This document shows, piece by piece, positions 1,738 through 62,722 of a DNA stretch of 64,000 bases. This DNA is from an uncultured bacterium. Its GTDB lineage: Bacteria > Patescibacteriota > Minisyncoccia > UBA6257 > 2-01-FULL-56-20. Both the position numbers and the translations under genes were made by a program. Where the stretch lies: NCBI GenBank assembly GCA_963807165.1, contig CAWDZM010000001.1, positions 119,963 to 183,962 of the forward strand, given 5' to 3'. Below the pieces are notes generated by a model. It saw only the letters and a list, made by a program, of their open reading frames with translations. It ran no database searches and was not told where the DNA came from. How positions within the stretch are numbered: the stretch's first letter is position 1; each line of letters starts with the position of its first letter.

Positions 1738-2019
1738 GCCGTTGTAGCTCAGCTGGTAGAGCAACTCCATGGTGGACTCACAGAGTCATGCCCACGGAAG
1801 GGGAAACCCTTCTGCGAACCCCGAATTACGGTCAAAGGCCAGGAATGGCAGAGACCGTGGCGAAGATGCGAATAGCGCGTGATTCGCCCGAACGACTGAC
1901 AAGGGACGCTGCGCCGTACAAGCGGTATGCGTAAGATACAGTCTAATCCTCATATAAGCATCGCGAAGGTGAGGTATCAATGAAGGAGTAGGTCGCCGGT
2001 TCAATTCCGGCCAACGGCT
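1738..2019 (+). tRNA. tRNA-Thr(GGT) interrupted by a group I intron (exons 1738..1773 and 1983..2019)
   Basis: Acceptor GCCGTTG/CAACGGC, D-arm GCTCAGCTGGTAGAGC, anticodon stem ACTCC/GGAGT, T-arm GCCGGTTCAATTCCGGC; the anticodon loop ATGGT|AA is split after anticodon position 36 by a 209-nt insert. Confidence 0.6.
1774..1982 (+). ncRNA. group I self-splicing intron (small, ORF-less) in tRNA-Thr(GGT)
   Basis: 5' exon ends in U and the intron ends in G; the intron GUCAUG can pair with exon CAUGGU (P1 with a U-G wobble at the splice site); a GAAA-tetraloop hairpin (P2), an ACGGUC/GACCGU stem (P4), a P7-like GACUG/CAGUC pairing and the core-like string AAGAUACAGUCUAAUCC are all present; 209 nt is the size class of the Azoarcus tRNA-Ile intron. 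Confidence 0.55.
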
Positions 2020-2023
2020 CACT

Positions 2024-2110
2024 CGCAGACAGCAAAAATCCCTATCGCTATTTCGCTCCGACGTAAGCACGTCCACTCGCTCAATAGCAATAGGGATTTT
2101 TGCTGTCTGC
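2024..2110 (+). repeat. long hairpin (28-bp stem) carrying the conserved core TCGCTCCGACGTAAGCACGTCCACTCGCTCAA in its loop; copy 1 of a 4-copy family; terminator-like
   Basis: Inverted repeat cagacagcaaaaatccctatcgctatt / aatagcaatagggatttttgctgtctg; the core is shared with 44722..44800, 51181..51247 and 58842..58897. Confidence 0.7.
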
Positions 2111-4354: not shown

Positions 4355-4720
4355 ATGGCAAATCACGAAGATTTAATTTCGAAAATAGAGTCTCTCACGG
4401 TAGTTGAGCTCGCGGAGCTCGTGAAGAAGCTTGAAGAGAAGTTCGGCATCTCGGCTGCGGCCCCGGTGGCGGCAGGCGGCGGAGCCGGCGCAGCTGCGGC
4501 GGAAGAGAAGACGGCATTCAACGTTGTCCTCAAATCGGCCGGAGCAAGCAAGTTGAACGTCATCAAGGTTGTCCGCGAAGTGACGACCCTCGGCCTTAAG
4601 GAGGCAAAGGATCTCGTAGACGGCGCACCGAAGACGATCAAAGAGAACGTCAAGAAGGAAGAGGCCGAAGAGATCAAGAAGAAGATCACGGAGGCAGGTG
4701 GAGTTGCGGAGATCGCATAA
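4355..4720 (+). CDS. rplL: 50S ribosomal protein L7/L12
   Basis: [29 protein letters not shown]...[41 protein letters not shown]. Confidence 0.9.
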
Positions 4721-4723
4721 AAC

Positions 4724-4797
4724 AAAAAGCCCCTCTTATTTGACGAGAATGCCACGTAGGAACGTGACCGCCAAATAAGAGGGGCTTTTTGTTTTAT
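4724..4797 (+). terminator. rho-independent terminator after rplL
   Basis: aaaagcccctcttatttg ... caaataagaggggcttttt-gtttt. Confidence 0.7.
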
Positions 4798-4916: not shown

Positions 4917-4920
4917 CAAA

Positions 4921-5036
4921 AAGAATTCCCCATACGTCCTTTCAGGGACGTGTCGCGGCCTACTGGCCGCGCACTCTATCTCGGCGCTCTTCGCGCCTCC
5001 GATGAGCCCCTCAAAGAGTATGGGAATTCTTTTTTA
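4921..5036. repeat. cloverleaf-like multi-hairpin element (17-bp outer stem enclosing three hairpins); probable bidirectional terminator between tRNA-Val and the convergent minus-strand gene
   Basis: Outer stem aaaagaattccccatac/gtatgggaattctttt; inner hairpins cgtcctttcagggacg, gtcgcggcctactggccgcgcac and tcggcgctcttcgcgcctccga. Confidence 0.5.
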
Positions 5037-6413: not shown

Positions 6414-7387
6414 ATGGCGGCGATTGAAGAGAAGAACGAAGCGCAACGCAGTTTGCATACACCAGTTCTTTTACACGAGGTAATAACGTTTTTAAATCCA
6501 CAGCCGGGAGATTTCATTATTGATGGCACGGTGGATGGCGGCGGACATGCCGCAGCGATCGCCACGATCATCGGATCGACGGGAACATTGCTCGGACTCG
6601 ATTGGGATGAAAAATTGCTCGAGCGATGCAAGGCGCGGTTCGCGAGCCAAAAAAATGTGAAGCTTGTCCACGGCAATTATGCCGAGCTGCCGGAAATCTT
6701 AGAAAAGATTTCTGCAACTGAAAATAATATTGCAGAAGCGCAAGCGGAACTGGATTGCTCATCGATCTTGGATTTTCTTCCGAACAGCTCGAAGCGTCGG
6801 GCAGGGGATTCAGCTTTGGTGAAGCGTATGCCGATGAGCCGTTGCTCATGACCTACGACGATTCGCGGACGCCGGTATGGCAAATCCTTCGTGAAGAGAG
6901 CGAAGAATCGCTCGCGAACATCATCTTTGAATTCGGCGGCGAGCGGGCATCACGGCGCATCGCGAAGGCAATCAAAGATCATGGGCGCAAGAAACCCATT
7001 ATGACCGCTGGCGAACTGGCGGATGTGGTTCGGGAAGCGCTGACGGGCGGCACCGATGCCAAGAGTCGCGGAAAGTACGAGCACGGCAGGATCGATCCCG
7101 CCACGCGCACATTCCAGGCATTCCGGATCTACGCGAACGGAGAACTCGAGAATCTTAAAACATTATTAAAAAACCTCAACGCGATCGTGAAGCCGGGCGG
7201 TCGGGTGGCGATCATCAGCTTCCATTCCACGGAAGACGGGATTGTGAAGAGAGCATTTCAATCATTGGCGAAAGAAGGGAGACTAACAATTATCACAAAG
7301 AAGCCGGTGGAAGCGACACGGGAAGAAATAAAAGAAAATCCGCGAAGCAGATCAGCAAAGATACGAGTAGCAGAAATAAAACAATGA
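6414..7387 (+). CDS. rsmH: 16S rRNA (cytosine1402-N4)-methyltransferase RsmH, interrupted by an apparent frameshift near 6728-6755 (two ORF fragments, 6414..6851 and 6755..7387)
   Basis: Fragment 1 has the N-terminal SAM-binding region (HTPVLLHEVITFL...IDGTVDGGGH...VHGNYAELPEILEKI); fragment 2, in the +1 frame relative to fragment 1, starts with the conserved LIDLGFSSEQLE...RGFSF and ends KIRVAEIKQ. Confidence 0.7.
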
Positions 7388-15398: not shown

Positions 15399-15480
15399 CC
15401 TGGAGGCACTACCACATCCTTTTCTGACCGTTGCGTCTGGGCACTAGATCAGAAAAGGATGTGGTAGTGCCTCCAGAGGA
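15399..15480. terminator. long perfect hairpin (28-bp stem) downstream of the gtrA-like gene
   Basis: ctggaggcactaccacatccttttctga / tcagaaaaggatgtggtagtgcctccag. Confidence 0.6.
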
Positions 15481-15619: not shown

Positions 15620-15718
15620 AAAACCTCTGATTTTTGGCTGCGCCTTCATTTTGCCTCGTCATCGTATGGAAATACGATTCCTCGGCAAAATTCGGCTCGC
15701 CTAAAAATCAGAGGTTTT
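15620..15718. repeat. 18-bp inverted repeat enclosing a structured ~63-nt loop
   Basis: aaacctctgatttttgg ... ccaaaaatcagaggttt arms. Confidence 0.4.
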
Positions 15719-21438: not shown

Positions 21439-21614
21439 CAAGCGGTCACGCGATTGTCCGGAACGAATGTTCTTGCCAATCGCGTGACCGCTTACTGGGC
21501 ACGATCGGAGCCGCTGTGGCACTGATAGGGCGTTCTGCAGAATAATGCACCGCCAAGCAGTTCATTTACAACCGCACTTTCGCCTCAAGCGAAAGGATCT
21601 CACTAGGAGGGATC

Positions 21615-23761: not shown

Positions 23762-23880
23762 CCACATACTAGGAGCATGCCCTTTGAGGGTATCGCGGAG
23801 CCGCGAAGGCGGCGAGCGTAAGGGACCGCGCAGCAGCGCGGAACCCGTCCCTCAAGGGGTATGCTCCTGGTATGTGGGTG
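23762..23880. repeat. long hairpin (29-bp stem, ~57-nt GC-rich loop) between the FKBP and response-regulator genes
   Basis: ccacatactaggagcatgccctttgaggg ... ccctcaaggggtatgctcctggtatgtgg. Confidence 0.55.
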
Positions 23881-43606: not shown

Positions 43607-44719
43607 ATGCCTATCATTCTTATCCTGACACTGATCGTTTTTGAGGTTCTCCTTATTATCGTCCACCTGGCCGTATACGCTACGCTCGTTGCGGCTTTTG
43701 GTATTGGTGGCATGTGGCTCAAAGTTCTGTTCGTCGCATTGGCACTCACGTTTGTTTCGGCGTCAGCGCTTTCGCATTTTTATAAAAGCGAAATTTTGGA
43801 TCGCTATTATCAGTTTTCCGCATATTGGTTTGGGCTGGTGCATTTTCTCTTCGGCGCGGCAGTGATATTTTATTTCACATTGAATATTTTTTATGCACAT
43901 GGCGTGTATATTTCTCCGGCGCTCGTCGGCGGGATCTGTTTTGGCGCCGCATTCCTTTTACATCTCTATGGCACTGTGCACAGCCAGTGTCCGAAGGTTG
44001 TCCGGGTAAAGATTCCATTCTCATCATTGCCTGGATTCCGCGCCGATTTTTGGAAAGATAAAAAAATTGTGTTTGTGAGCGATTTCCAGCTGGGAAATAT
44101 TTATAGACAGAATTTCACCGCGCGGGTGGCACAAAAGATCGCCGTGCTCGATCCGTATGCCGTGCTGATCGGCGGTGATCTGTACGATGGCGTTGTTTGC
44201 AATGAAGCAAAGTTGATCGAGCCGTTGCGCTCTCTGCATCCCACGGGCGGTGTCTATATGATCACCGGCAATCACGAATATTATTTGCCCGACGTCCCGC
44301 GCGCACTTGATGCGATTCGCGCGGCGGGGATTACTGTGTTGGATGATAAGAAAATAGATATCGGTGGCATCGACCTCATCGGCGTCGATTATCGATCGTC
44401 ACATAAGCGCGATGATTTTAAAAATACCCTCGCACGGATTGGTGTTGATCGCACGCGGCCGAGCATTCTTCTTAAGCACGAGCCGATCGATCTCGACGTC
44501 GCTGCCGACGCCGGTGTATCGCTCGACCTCTCGGGCCACACGCACCACGGGCAAATATTCCCGCTTATGTTCTTTACCTGGCAGATCTATAAAGGATTCG
44601 ACTATGGATTAAAACATCACGGCGTGATGCAGGTTTTTACCTCCAGCGGCGCAGGCACGTGGGGTCCACCCCTCCGGCTTGGCACAAAATCGGAGATTGT
44701 CCTTATTGAATTTGTATAA
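43607..44719 (+). CDS. calcineurin-like metallophosphoesterase with N-terminal membrane domain
   Basis: VFVSDFQLG, GGDLYDG, ITGNHEYY, LKHEP, GHTHHGQ. Confidence 0.75.
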   Translation: MPIILILTLIVFEVLLIIVHLAVYATLVAAFGIGGMWLKVLFVALALTFVSASALSHFYKSEILDRYYQFSAYWFGLVHFLFGAAVIFYFTLNIFYAHGVYISPALVGGICFGAAFLLHLYGTVHSQCPKVVRVKIPFSSLPGFRADFWKDKKIVFVSDFQLGNIYRQNFTARVAQKIAVLDPYAVLIGGDLYDGVVCNEAKLIEPLRSLHPTGGVYMITGNHEYYLPDVPRALDAIRAAGITVLDDKKIDIGGIDLIGVDYRSSHKRDDFKNTLARIGVDRTRPSILLKHEPIDLDVAADAGVSLDLSGHTHHGQIFPLMFFTWQIYKGFDYGLKHHGVMQVFTSSGAGTWGPPLRLGTKSEIVLIEFV

Positions 44720-44721
44720 AC

Positions 44722-44800
44722 TAAATAAAATAGGGATAGGTGTTGAGCGAGTGGACGTTCTTACGTCGGAGTGAAATATCTATCCCTATTTTATTTTTGG
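44722..44800. repeat. hairpin carrying the conserved core (copy 3, reverse orientation); bidirectional terminator between convergent genes
   Basis: aaaatagggatag...GAGCGAGTGGACGTTCTTACGTCGGAG...ctatccctatttt; overlaps the stop of the minus-strand dsbB-like gene. Confidence 0.7.
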
Positions 44801-47304: not shown

Positions 47305-47465
47305 ATAGAGCAAACCCTCCCTCGCTTTCGACCCGAGTGGAGGGTTGCTGTTTATCCTGGCTCTTGAAAGGACGGCGTTCCGGCCTGCTGACCGGCCGCC
47401 TTGGCTCTCAGCGCCTTCGCGCTTCCGAGACACCTTTCAAAAGCCAGGATAAGCAGCAACCCATC
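47305..47465. ncRNA. candidate structured ncRNA (long irregular hairpin, ~25-bp closing helix); strand undetermined; SRP-RNA-like or 6S-like
   Basis: Closing helix GCTGTTTATCCTGGCTCTTGAAAGG / CCTTTCAAAAGCCAGGATAAGCAGC; inner hairpins; overlapping spurious ORFs on both strands; 5' string GUUGCUGUUUAUCCUGG resembles the bacterial SRP RNA 5' consensus. Confidence 0.3.
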
Positions 47466-50517: not shown

Positions 50518-51180
50518 ATGCACACCATACAACAAAAACTGTTAGCGCTGGCGGAAAAGAAAAACTTGGGTAACTTCACCCTGCGGGAGATTGGTGGGTT
50601 CGTGGGCGAGACGTCGCCACAGAAGATAAAACATCACCTTCAACAGCTTGAGAAGCGGGGATTCATTCATATCAATAAAATGGAACACACAATAAAAACC
50701 ACAAAACAGCAGGGCCCGACGGTAAAAGGGATACTAGGAAATGCCAAACTGCTTTCCATCCCGATTCTTGGATCAGCCAACGCCGGCCCGGCAATGGTCT
50801 TCGCCGCCTCAAATATCGAGGGCTATCTCCGCGTTTCGAGCTCTCTCGTCGCACGACCTCGATTGTCGCACCGGCTGTTTGCCCTTAAGGTGGATGGCCC
50901 GTCCATGAATATGGCGTACGTTGGTGGGAAGAAGATCGATAATGGGGATTATGTGATCATCGACAGCGAAGACCGGGAAGCGATGAATGATGATATTGTG
51001 CTTTCCGTTATTGATGGAATGGCAAACATCAAAAAATATTATGTTGATAAGGAAAATAACCAGATCCTTCTCATGTCCGAATCCACGCACGATTTCCCGG
51101 CGATCCACATCCATGAGAATGATGATTTTTCAATCAACGGCAAAGTGGTGGGCGTGATCAAGACACCGAAGAAGAAATAA
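50518..51180 (+). CDS. lexA: LexA-family repressor (wHTH plus S24 peptidase)
   Basis: N-terminal wHTH; cleavage-site-like ANAG; VDGPSMNMAY (Ser nucleophile) and ...MANIKKYY (Lys). Confidence 0.7.
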   Translation: MHTIQQKLLALAEKKNLGNFTLREIGGFVGETSPQKIKHHLQQLEKRGFIHINKMEHTIKTTKQQGPTVKGILGNAKLLSIPILGSANAGPAMVFAASNIEGYLRVSSSLVARPRLSHRLFALKVDGPSMNMAYVGGKKIDNGDYVIIDSEDREAMNDDIVLSVIDGMANIKKYYVDKENNQILLMSESTHDFPAIHIHENDDFSINGKVVGVIKTPKKK

Positions 51181-51247
51181 AAACACCCCTAGCTATTTCG
51201 CTCCAGCGTAGGAACGCCCACTCGCTCAATAGCTAGGGGTGTTTTTA
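51181..51247 (+). repeat. hairpin carrying the conserved core (copy 2) with T-run; terminator after lexA
   Basis: aaaacacccctagctattTCGCTCCAGCGTAGGAACGCCCACTCGCTCAATAGCtaggggtgttttt. Confidence 0.7.
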
Positions 51248-51317
51248 TTTCTTGTGACAACAATTTGACGATATGGCTATAGAAATGCTATGATATTTCG
51301 GCACGGAGGAAATCAAA

Positions 51318-58225: not shown

Positions 58226-58837
58226 ATGAAATACGAACTACCAAAACTTCCTTATGCGTACGATGCGCTCGAACCGTACATTGATGCACGCACGATGGAA
58301 ATCCATTACACCAAGCATCACCAGACGTATGTGAACAAGCTGAACGAGGCGCTTGATAAGCATCCGGAGATCGCGGATAAACCGCTCGAAGAATTACTCG
58401 CCAACCTGGATGCGGTGCCGGAAGATATTCGCGGCGCGGTGCGCAATCACGGCGGCGGTCATTTAAATCATTCATTCTTTTGGACGATCATGGGACCACG
58501 CGCGTCTGGTAGCGATAACGCGCCGATCGGCGCGATGGCGGATGGTATCGCGAGCGCGTTCGGCAACTTCGCCACATTCAAAGAGGAATTTACCAAAGCC
58601 GCCGCCGGTGTGTTTGGCTCGGGCTGGGCATGGCTTGTGGTGGATGCCGATGGCAAGCTTGCGGTAACCTCAACGCCAAACCAGGACAGTCCGCTTTCAA
58701 AGCATCAAAAGCCATTGCTTGGGCTCGATGTATGGGAGCATGCCTATTATCTCAAGTACCAAAATATGCGCCCCGATTATATCAACGCGTGGTGGAGTGT
58801 GGTAAATTGGAAATCAGTAAACGAAAAATATAGCTAA
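58226..58837 (+). CDS. sodA: Fe/Mn superoxide dismutase
   Basis: [38 protein letters not shown]...GSGWAWL...DVWEHAYYL. Confidence 0.9.
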
Positions 58838-58841
58838 CACC

Positions 58842-58897
58842 CTTGAGCGAGTGGACGTTCTTACGTTGGAGCGAGGGGGTCTTAGCTATATTTTTTT
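58842..58897. repeat. hairpin carrying the conserved core (copy 4, reverse orientation); bidirectional terminator between sodA and fmt
   Basis: tagctaacaccctTGAGCGAGTGGACGTTCTTACGTTGGAGCGAgggggtcttagcta. Confidence 0.65.
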
Positions 58898-62671: not shown

Positions 62672-62722
62672 CGCACAAAGGGGAGGGTTGGCGCACAAAT
62701 GTGCGGCAACCCTCCCCTTTTT
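62672..62722. terminator. bidirectional rho-independent terminator (small ORF / rpmA)
   Basis: aaggggagggttggcgcacaaatgtgcggcaaccctcccctttttacttt. Confidence 0.7.

Follow-up and report, generated by a model that had tools for sequence, protein, structure and literature searches.

Four hairpins in the 64,000-nucleotide window of contig CAWDZM010000001.1 (by window we mean the whole stretch of DNA that was analysed) belonged to a family of terminator-type hairpins in which a 34-nt apex, here called core A, was nearly invariant while the enclosing stems covaried. The family lay at gene 3′ ends with a bias to the transcribed sense, its apex carried a signature of selection, and at orthologous terminators the apex was exchanged for other modules. 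We tentatively read the element as a lineage-specific, exchangeable bidirectional-terminator cassette, the apex of which would be a docking site for a clade-specific factor on the 3′ hairpin of the RNA; we give this explanation a little less than an even chance. The window itself was ordinary chromosomal DNA of Candidatus Paceibacterota, a group of the candidate phyla radiation (CPR), and carried the housekeeping genes rpmG, rplJ/rplL, secA, murB, zwf-gnd, pgi, lexA, znuABC, sodA, and fmt.

Copies, range and anatomy of the hairpin

When the window was searched for the 23-nt 3′ part of the core with as many as 3 mismatches permitted, exactly four sites were returned, with 0.00 expected from 100 dinucleotide shuffles. 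These were the four sites proposed by an earlier reading of the letters alone (the sequence-only reading), and their coordinates are collected in Table 1. Inverted repeats of 19–28 nt with 91–100% complementarity flanked the core in every window copy, and both the mini-palindrome GACGT-N4-ACGTC and the direct repeat TCGCTC were present, as that reading had described. It had also placed all four copies at gene 3′ ends, two of them between convergent genes, and this was found to be so. Copy 1 lay directly 3′ of an intron-containing tRNA-Thr(GGU) gene; its apex was GACGT-AAGC-ACGTC, and a T-rich tail followed. Copy 2 overlapped the lexA stop codon (51178–51180), had the apex AGCGT-AGGA-ACGCC, and was bordered by an A-tract and a T-tract on both sides. 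The same lexA 3′-end context recurred, with diverged arms, in the retrieved loci L016, L037, L026, L051, and L022 (blastn synteny for L016 only). Copy 3 stood between a metallophosphoesterase gene (+, ending at 44719) and dsbB (−, ending at 44786), with the core sense to dsbB. Copy 4 stood between sodA (+, ending at 58837) and fmt (−, ending at 58882), with the core sense to fmt, and its arms contained the stop codons of both genes. In the L018 orthologue of copy 4 the outer arm was unchanged and the inner arm had diverged. Compared with shuffled sequences, three window hairpins gave fold z-scores of −5.8 to −11.2; the value for copy 4 (−2.8) came from a folded stretch missing part of the 3′ arm. 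Only tRNAs passed the Rfam gathering score, and a permissive Rfam search (E up to 5–10) gave generic long-hairpin matches such as the plastid psbA 3′ untranslated region (3′UTR) and microRNA precursors, far below threshold.

An exact-pattern scan of a genome collection found 19 true loci in 7 Paceibacterota/Minisyncoccia metagenome-assembled genomes, and a metagenome scan added about 36 more true copies, largely from peat or bog as judged by contig names. Each scan needed one exact half of the core, the two using opposite halves. Loci L022–L063 are those of the metagenome scan, and OY970358 includes L006, L007, and L008. After removal of duplicates, 46 distinct copies of core A formed the set for alignment, covariation, and identity figures, and 49 non-redundant contexts formed the set for counts of orientation and gene context. 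All 46 copies came from related peat or soil Paceibacterota/Minisyncoccia sequences and had one common architecture. Chance or artefact was ruled out by the absence of any expected copy and by 46 independent copies across many assemblies. The number of exact cores was 2–6 per representative genome of about 0.85 Mb. The viral contigs searched held no copy of core A, and a phage origin was rejected on this ground. Two Halomonas matches and five metagenome matches were discarded as chance or coding matches without hairpins.

Syntenic loci were gathered through the core scans and through homologues of L7/L12 and LexA. Among them, L064–L074 (ten loci, about 195 kb, some near-duplicates of each other) were fetched independently of the core. 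Synteny with the window was established by blastn for L003, L006, L016, L018, and L019 only, and the other members of a gene context were grouped by common upstream sequence. The resulting same-context sets included lexA (6 sequences), tRNA-Val, tmRNA (transfer-messenger RNA), tRNA-Pro, fmt/sodA, and others.

Every true copy formed the apex of a hairpin, and the common layout was an A-rich tract, a stem, the 34-nt core, the complementary stem, and a T-rich tract. The stem spanned a median of 22 bp and up to about 30 bp. A run of at least 4 A upstream together with a run of at least 4 T downstream was present in 40 of the 46 copies. All copies were intergenic or overlapped only the last codons of a gene, often including the stop codon, and no true copy was found within coding sequence or without flanking inverted repeats; a refuting condition set by the sequence-only reading thus did not arise. 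Ten of the 49 contexts lay directly after a tRNA or tmRNA. With these terminator-type features the element therefore has the design of a bidirectional intrinsic terminator, and from its canonical anatomy and position we infer that the hairpins terminate transcription in both directions. Bidirectional intrinsic (Rho-independent) terminators are likewise built from an A-tract, a GC-containing hairpin, and a T-tract readable on both strands, and likewise stand at gene 3′ ends, including those of convergent genes. Unlike them, the element has long, nearly perfect stems, and its loop is a 34-nt module conserved across genomes, compared with 3–8 arbitrary bases.

Covariation, selection and orientation

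In the 62-column alignment 94.4% of the cells were paired, compared with 69.1% in shuffles and 33–45% in slid controls. Cells with a double change numbered 247 versus 61 in shuffles, and the covariation score was 0.649 versus 0.149. These values bear out what had been proposed, namely terminator-type hairpins that form one family, with covarying stems beneath a conserved apex. The description of the stems as unrelated had to be given up. The 14 nt adjoining the core showed a weak arm consensus AAAACCCATCGCTG over the 46 copies, and at least 6 of the 10 innermost arm positions matched it in 22 of the 46, versus about 4% of shuffled arms. Three separate loci of OY970358 (L006, L007, and L008) had near-identical inner arms (CCCATCGCTG, CCCACCGCTG, and CCCATCCCTG, respectively). 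The arm consensus and the near-identical inner arms within one genome therefore suggest that the family behaves as a palindromic arm-core-arm unit; its ends appear to drift faster than its centre, and it does not look like a bare core set between unrelated sequences. For the same reason, a family consensus in the arms, the phrase ‘opposite of a MITE’ (miniature inverted-repeat transposable element) was not supported.

The 34-nt core had the consensus TTTCGCTCC-rrCGT-ArGm-ACGyC-CACTCGCTCAA. Over the 46 copies 17 columns were invariant and 10 further columns were at least 90% conserved, and the variation was concentrated at five positions, namely R24, R25 with its partner Y36, and loop positions 30 and 32. 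Identity over all pairs of copies reached 0.91 in the core, compared with 0.44 in the arms. Within the core it was 0.97 at the 29 constrained positions and 0.60 at the five free positions, the latter value being near saturation for two-state sites. Copies from the same gene context showed an identity of 0.93 in the core and 0.66 in the arms, and the flanking coding DNA was 71–89% identical, with most blocks at 75–80%.

A covariance model built from the first 24 copies scored the known copies at 54–86 bits. Run over the genome-scan loci, L064–L074, and the window itself (about 400 kb in all, the metagenome loci L022–L063 being left out), it returned no intermediate-scoring decayed copies, and the weak matches at 26–27 bits were only core B, a second apex described below. 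A separate motif search over about 525 kb (the window and L001–L067) brought up a single degenerate copy, which lay in L061 and had lost 5 nt; neither split nor half cores nor a longer parent element appeared. Because saturated free sites adjoin invariant neighbours and decayed copies are absent, the pattern indicates purifying selection on the core sequence itself, as seen through public scans biased by their exact half-core requirement. Since the stems drift freely while the 34-base tip barely changes, the tip probably does a sequence-specific job.

For the sense strand, RNAalifold predicted the outer stem and a 4-bp apical helix with an A-R-G-M tetraloop, together with a 9 × 11-nt internal loop, the two sides of which are the conserved strands UUUCGCUCC and CACUCGCUCAA. 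Apical pair 25–36 was A-U in 34 copies, G-C in 11, and broken in 1, which is a compensatory pattern. Pair 24–37 was G-C in 29 copies, A·C in 15, and A-U in 2 (double changes), with no G·U.

The orientation of the core was biased to the transcribed sense, without this being an absolute rule. In 36 of the 49 contexts a co-directional gene, tRNA, or tmRNA ended within 35 nt upstream of the core, and about 16 of these 36 also faced a convergent gene. All ten copies after a tRNA or tmRNA were sense. In tandem-gene contexts the ratio of sense to antisense was about 18:5, and it was about 12–13:5 when orthologues were collapsed.

Exchange of apices at orthologous terminators

At least three more apex families occurred besides core A; we call them core B, family 2, and family 3. 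Each was repeated and each had variable stems. Core B, found at the rplL terminator of the window, had only the ACGT-AGGA-ACGT mini-hairpin in common with core A, and the flanking loop strands differed. It also occurred at L064 10374–10436 and at L070 9778–9842 and 2–66, and its closing pairs covaried (TTGACG/CGTCAA versus TTACGG/CCGTAA). Family 2 was present three times in the window and was also found in L004, L011, L016, L034, L035, L036, L039, L044, L062 (two copies), and L065. Its conserved module of about 75 nt contained two internal hairpins (GGACGG-hairpin-CCTTGGCTCTC-AGCGC-CTTC-GCGCT-TCCGAGACACC) and was enclosed by long, variable, complementary stems; three copies followed tRNAs in sense, and no Rfam model matched the family. 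Family 3 consisted of long terminator hairpins with A/T tracts, differing stems of 20–30 bp, and a conserved 18-nt loop TCGTGATAAGAATAATTC, at L064 2259–2336, 8391–8424, and 11854–11889, at L066 about 7010–7090, and in L001 and L047. Its loop shared TAAGAA with the core A apex GTAAGAAC and resembled core B GTAGGAAC.

Four orthologous terminators showed how these apices replaced one another. The tRNA-Thr(GGU) terminator carried core A in the window and the family 3 loop TCGTGATAAGAATAATT in L064 and L066, and L006 kept only a remnant of the right arm. Despite the different apices, the outer stem GCAGAyrGCAAAA was common to the window, L064, and L066. The inner arm of the window copy was the family-typical TCCCTATCGCTA; this consensus-like arm appears to have arrived with the core, and the exchangeable unit would therefore be arm-core-arm, about 60 nt, as seen in this single case of apex exchange. 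The L006 site was considered as an empty site, the filled form then being an insertion with inverted duplication of its flank. This was rejected, since L064 and L066 show the outer stem to be ancestral, and the L006 site is for that reason best taken as a deletion remnant.

At the tRNA-Val terminator, core A was found in L003, L006, and L019, the 82-nt family 2 apex in the window and L065, and no hairpin in L064, L066, L068, and L070. At the rplL terminator, core B was found in the window, L064, and L070, a plain TTGAAAT loop in L003, L019, L065, and L068, and a plain TGCT loop in L066. The plain stem of L066 (GGCCCTC/AGAGGGCC) resembled the core B stem of L064 (GGCCCCTTC/GAAGGGGCC); no other terminator shows more clearly how a module can occupy, or be missing from, the loop of stems that are otherwise related. 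The lexA terminator carried core A in the window, L016, L037, L026, L051, and L022, and lacked it in L071–L074. The junctions between conserved and replaced sequence coincided with A/T tracts. No target-site duplication was seen in the filled-versus-plain comparison at rplL or the filled-versus-empty comparison at tRNA-Val, where only inverted symmetry and no direct repeat was present. The suggestion of a small element that homes into hairpin loops was thus partly supported: orthologous stems do carry different apices or plain loops, but the moving unit would be arm-core-arm and not the bare core.

A reverse-strand open reading frame (ORF) of 92–96 aa was inserted between rplL and tRNA-Val in L003 (about 600–1080), L065 (10423–10713), and L066 (10597–10875). 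The window lacks this insertion and several sister genomes have it, so the interval would be a rearrangement hotspot. The contigs of L064–L067 and L070 ended about 2.5 kb downstream of rplL, within a few kb of rplL/tRNA-Val; the assemblies may have broken there because sequence near the hairpins is repeated or variable.

Further long, near-perfect intergenic palindromes lay at window positions 15400–15476, 15620–15718, 21440–21493, and 62677–62720; one of them had 28-nt arms with 100% complementarity and a 21-nt spacer. Long hairpins with loops of middling size seem to be unusually frequent in this genome. The tRNA-Thr(GGU) gene upstream of copy 1 was interrupted by an intron that its orthologues in L006, L064, L066, and L070 lacked. 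The 5′ exon ended in U and the intron in G, and the intron contained AAGATACAGTC, which we take to resemble a conserved core element of group I introns. The gene escaped ARAGORN, and the Rfam models, that for group I introns among them, gave no match there. The precursor fold gave z = −4.6, with the cloverleaf arms forming around the intron.

Table 1. Positions of core A hairpins, other apex families, and the interrupted tRNA gene in the window
Feature	Position (strand)	Arms	Core, apex or intron
Copy 1 hairpin	2025..2110 (+)	2025-2052 / 2083-2110, 28 nt, 96% complementary	core 2051-2084 (+)
Copy 2 hairpin	51172..51253 (+)	51172-51197 / 51228-51253, 26 nt, 100% complementary	core 51196-51229 (+)
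Copy 3 hairpin	44723..44796 (−)	44723-44744 / 44775-44796, 22 nt, 91% complementary	core 44743-44776 (−)
Copy 4 hairpin	58824..58895 (−)	58824-58842 / 58877-58895, 19 nt, 95% complementary	core 58843-58876 (−)
Core B at rplL terminator	4717..4797 (+)		apex TTGACGAGAATGC-CACGT-AGGA-ACGTG-ACCGCCAA; weak covariance-model match, 26 bits
Family 2 in tRNA-Val terminator	4918..5035 (+)	4918-4935 / 5018-5035	82-nt apex
Family 2, second window copy	47342..47462 (+)		
Family 2, third window copy	23762..23877 (−)		
tRNA-Thr(GGU) gene upstream of copy 1	1738..2020 (+)		209-nt intron 1774-1982, between nucleotides 36 and 37

What the conserved apex may do

Judged by its sequence-level features, the element would be an extragenic palindromic repeat that doubles as an intrinsic terminator. 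It is unusual in its inverted conservation gradient, in which conservation at the centre far exceeds that of the arms, and in the several interchangeable apex families on the same terminator stems. In the explanation we favour, the cassette would run from an A-tract through a stem of about 22 bp, drifting by compensated change, to the 34-nt apex, the complementary stem, and a T-tract. The stem and U-tract would stop RNA polymerase arriving from either side, and the apex would be a separate, exchangeable module. In the sense RNA the apex would form a helix of 4–5 bp capped by the A-R-G-M tetraloop, sitting on a large internal loop. Both strands of that loop are conserved and rich in pyrimidines, and both contain CGCUC. 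Selection would hold this apex almost invariant while its surroundings change, and the apex would serve as a sequence-specific docking site on the hairpin that forms the 3′ end of mRNAs and of the trailers of tRNAs and tmRNA. The putative partner would be a trans-acting factor of the clade, for example an RNA-binding protein or a ribonuclease setting 3′-end stability or processing. Action at the RNA level and the existence of such a partner are both suggested rather than seen. The selection signature fits the conserved binding module that the sequence-only reading had proposed, but no partner was found for it.

A neighbouring idea is a small RNA of the 3′UTR or 3′-trailer type, such as the sponges cut from the 3′ external transcribed spacers (3′ETS) of tRNAs. 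These likewise present a conserved, single-stranded, C/U-rich sequence on a terminator hairpin, released at the 3′ end of tRNA and mRNA transcripts. Unlike them, the module stands behind many unrelated genes, and it had no above-chance complementary targets in the window.

Several observations weigh against the docking-site explanation. Core A was absent (0 copies) from L064–L074, and the lexA terminators without the element show individual copies to be dispensable. About 5–7 copies (among L001, L004, L005, L008, L020, L036, and L048) were transcribed antisense only. The non-Watson-Crick combinations in the core were mostly A·C in sense, which is G·U on the opposite strand; this asymmetry was largely caused by search patterns that fix a half-core, and pair 24–37 alone is free of that bias. 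The opposite strand folded better than the sense strand, and the outer-stem mismatches were strand-symmetric (G·U 13 versus A·C 16), as expected for a DNA palindrome or for use of both strands. Window targets complementary to the two loop strands occurred at chance-level counts, and no partner turned up. Furthermore, divergent copies outside the DNA analysed here would have escaped detection, because both public scans demanded an exact half-core.

A selfish, non-autonomous palindromic element of the MITE or REPIN kind (REPIN: a hairpin of repetitive extragenic palindromic, REP, sequences) is an unlikely explanation, although one to be taken seriously. The ~60-nt arm-core-arm unit would be what moves, an enzyme encoded elsewhere would recognise the core and mobilise the unit, and landings would be tolerated at terminator apices and A/T-tract junctions, with termination as a by-product. 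This would account for the consensus shared by the arms, for the near-identical inner arms at different places in OY970358, and for presence/absence and apex replacement at orthologous terminators. It would also account for the very uneven density, with 4 copies in the 64-kb window versus 0 in about 195 kb of ten related loci, and for the like behaviour of at least four apex families. The machinery for such movement was not seen: no transposase, HUH, RAYT (REP-associated tyrosine transposase), or insertion sequence (IS) gene adjoined the four copies or appeared among the 29 of 76 window ORFs scanned, and no parent IS was found within about 525 kb. The missing target-site duplication at rplL, the missing half cores, and the low exact-core copy number also count against it. 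Moreover, copies of the same context stayed intact in the core with arms down to 50–80% identity, whereas a static neutral insertion should decay.

The comparison with known elements of this kind is similarly divided. As in the REPINs (PMC3116915) and REP/RAYT systems, and in MITEs such as the Neisseria Correia elements, the repeat is short, palindromic, and extragenic, forms an RNA hairpin, and may act as a terminator or processing site. Presence/absence between related genomes and a weak terminal inverted-repeat consensus are further likenesses. On conserved terminal inverted repeats, a MITE feature, the observations were mixed, with that weak arm consensus beside an all-pairs arm identity of only 0.44. 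The element differs in having no transposase gene or target-site duplication that we could see, tens of copies at most, a centre much more conserved than its ends, and intact cores in the same context. A REP or REPIN identity was rejected, as the consensus lacked a GTAG-type signature and the exact copies per genome were few compared with hundreds.

The number of apex families invites a broader proposal, which we consider rather unlikely. At least four exchangeable modules (core A, core B, the 75-nt three-way junction, and the 18-nt loop) would make up either a loop-resident mobile class or a ‘3′-end tagging code’. If so, the modules of a mobile class would copy themselves into palindrome centres, and under a tagging code different apices would route transcripts to different factors.

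An improbable, though serious, alternative places the function in DNA, as a site for a clade-specific DNA-binding protein on the duplex or an extruded cruciform, or as single-stranded DNA of the strand opposite the usual mRNA. Examples would be a polar transcription roadblock, a nucleoid site as in BIME-1/RIP elements (bacterial interspersed mosaic elements; repetitive IHF-binding palindromic elements, IHF being integration host factor), or an uptake signal. The palindrome GACGT-N4-ACGTC, 14 bp long, is laid out like a site for a dimer, and within the window ACGT-N4-ACGT was confined to hairpin apices (4 matches versus 0.66 expected). The strand-symmetric outer-stem mismatches, a core wobble pattern favouring the antisense strand, and the occurrence of both orientations point the same way. 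The half-sites, however, change compensatorily (A-T to G-C in 11 copies), which fits a nucleic-acid helix and not identical half-sites for a protein, and the orientation is biased to the transcribed sense. A replication-oriented signal was rejected, as the GC skew was uniformly positive across the window, yet two copies lay on each strand. The association with lexA raised the question of a LexA (SOS) box, and this too was rejected, since no such motif stood upstream of lexA.

Two known systems bear on the DNA-level proposal. In Escherichia coli, BIME-1/RIP elements consist of two inverted REPs around a conserved IHF-binding centre. The element resembles them in its conserved centre between inverted repeats and its extragenic position at 3′ ends of transcription units, and the BIME centre is thought to be a protein site. 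In BIMEs, however, conservation lies in the REP arms, whereas the element has drifting arms around an invariant centre; it also has no GTAG/REP signature, far fewer copies, and a centre with its own covarying helix. CPR bacteria probably rely on taking up DNA, and the Neisseria DNA uptake sequence (DUS) and the Haemophilus uptake signal sequence (USS) are likewise clade-specific conserved motifs inside terminator hairpins. Those motifs form the stems as inverted pairs, at about 1 per kb and in coding DNA too, whereas the element is a single, oriented, 34-nt loop motif with few exact copies per genome and none in coding DNA. With 4 copies in 64 kb and 0 in about 195 kb, the density was far too low, and an uptake sequence was rejected.

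It is very improbable that the apex has no partner at all and is a compact, fast-folding cap that nucleates the long stem co-transcriptionally, conserved because few sequences fold equally well. The mini-helix does covary, and plain loops (TTGAAAT, TGCT) and other apices replace the core at the same terminators, which means that no particular apex is needed for a terminator to exist. A folding cap, however, needs none of the about 20 unpaired core positions that were invariant at ≥90–100%, the predicted internal loop of the sense RNA costs stability compared with a tetraloop, and the families keep distinct conserved loop sequences.

The remaining candidates were dismissed. An integron attC site was rejected because the conservation is reversed and the ends are A/T tracts without GTTRRRY. 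A K-turn, a hammerhead or other small ribozyme, a group II domain 5, and a tRNA-like minihelix were rejected on misfitting junction and bulge lengths (judged by eye against consensus features), and the Rfam models gave no match.

Full-text literature searches returned no description of such elements in Patescibacteria. CPR bacteria are uncultivated and have minimal genomes, and to our knowledge almost nothing is known of their RNA biology. If the family is only a selfish palindromic repeat, it would be a modest addition to the catalogue of REP-like and MITE-like elements. It is in any case a previously undescribed candidate motif from a poorly known phylum, with a clear selection signal and odd dynamics, a narrow range, and a low copy number, and the exchange of several conserved apices on the same stems is unusual evolutionary behaviour for terminators. 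That a 34-nt motif stays near-invariant at 3′ ends, amid coding DNA of about 75–80% identity, suggests that this clade has a trans-acting factor or mechanism which has gone unrecognised. The role of the putative factor could be in termination, in 3′-end processing or stability, or in the mobility of palindrome centres.

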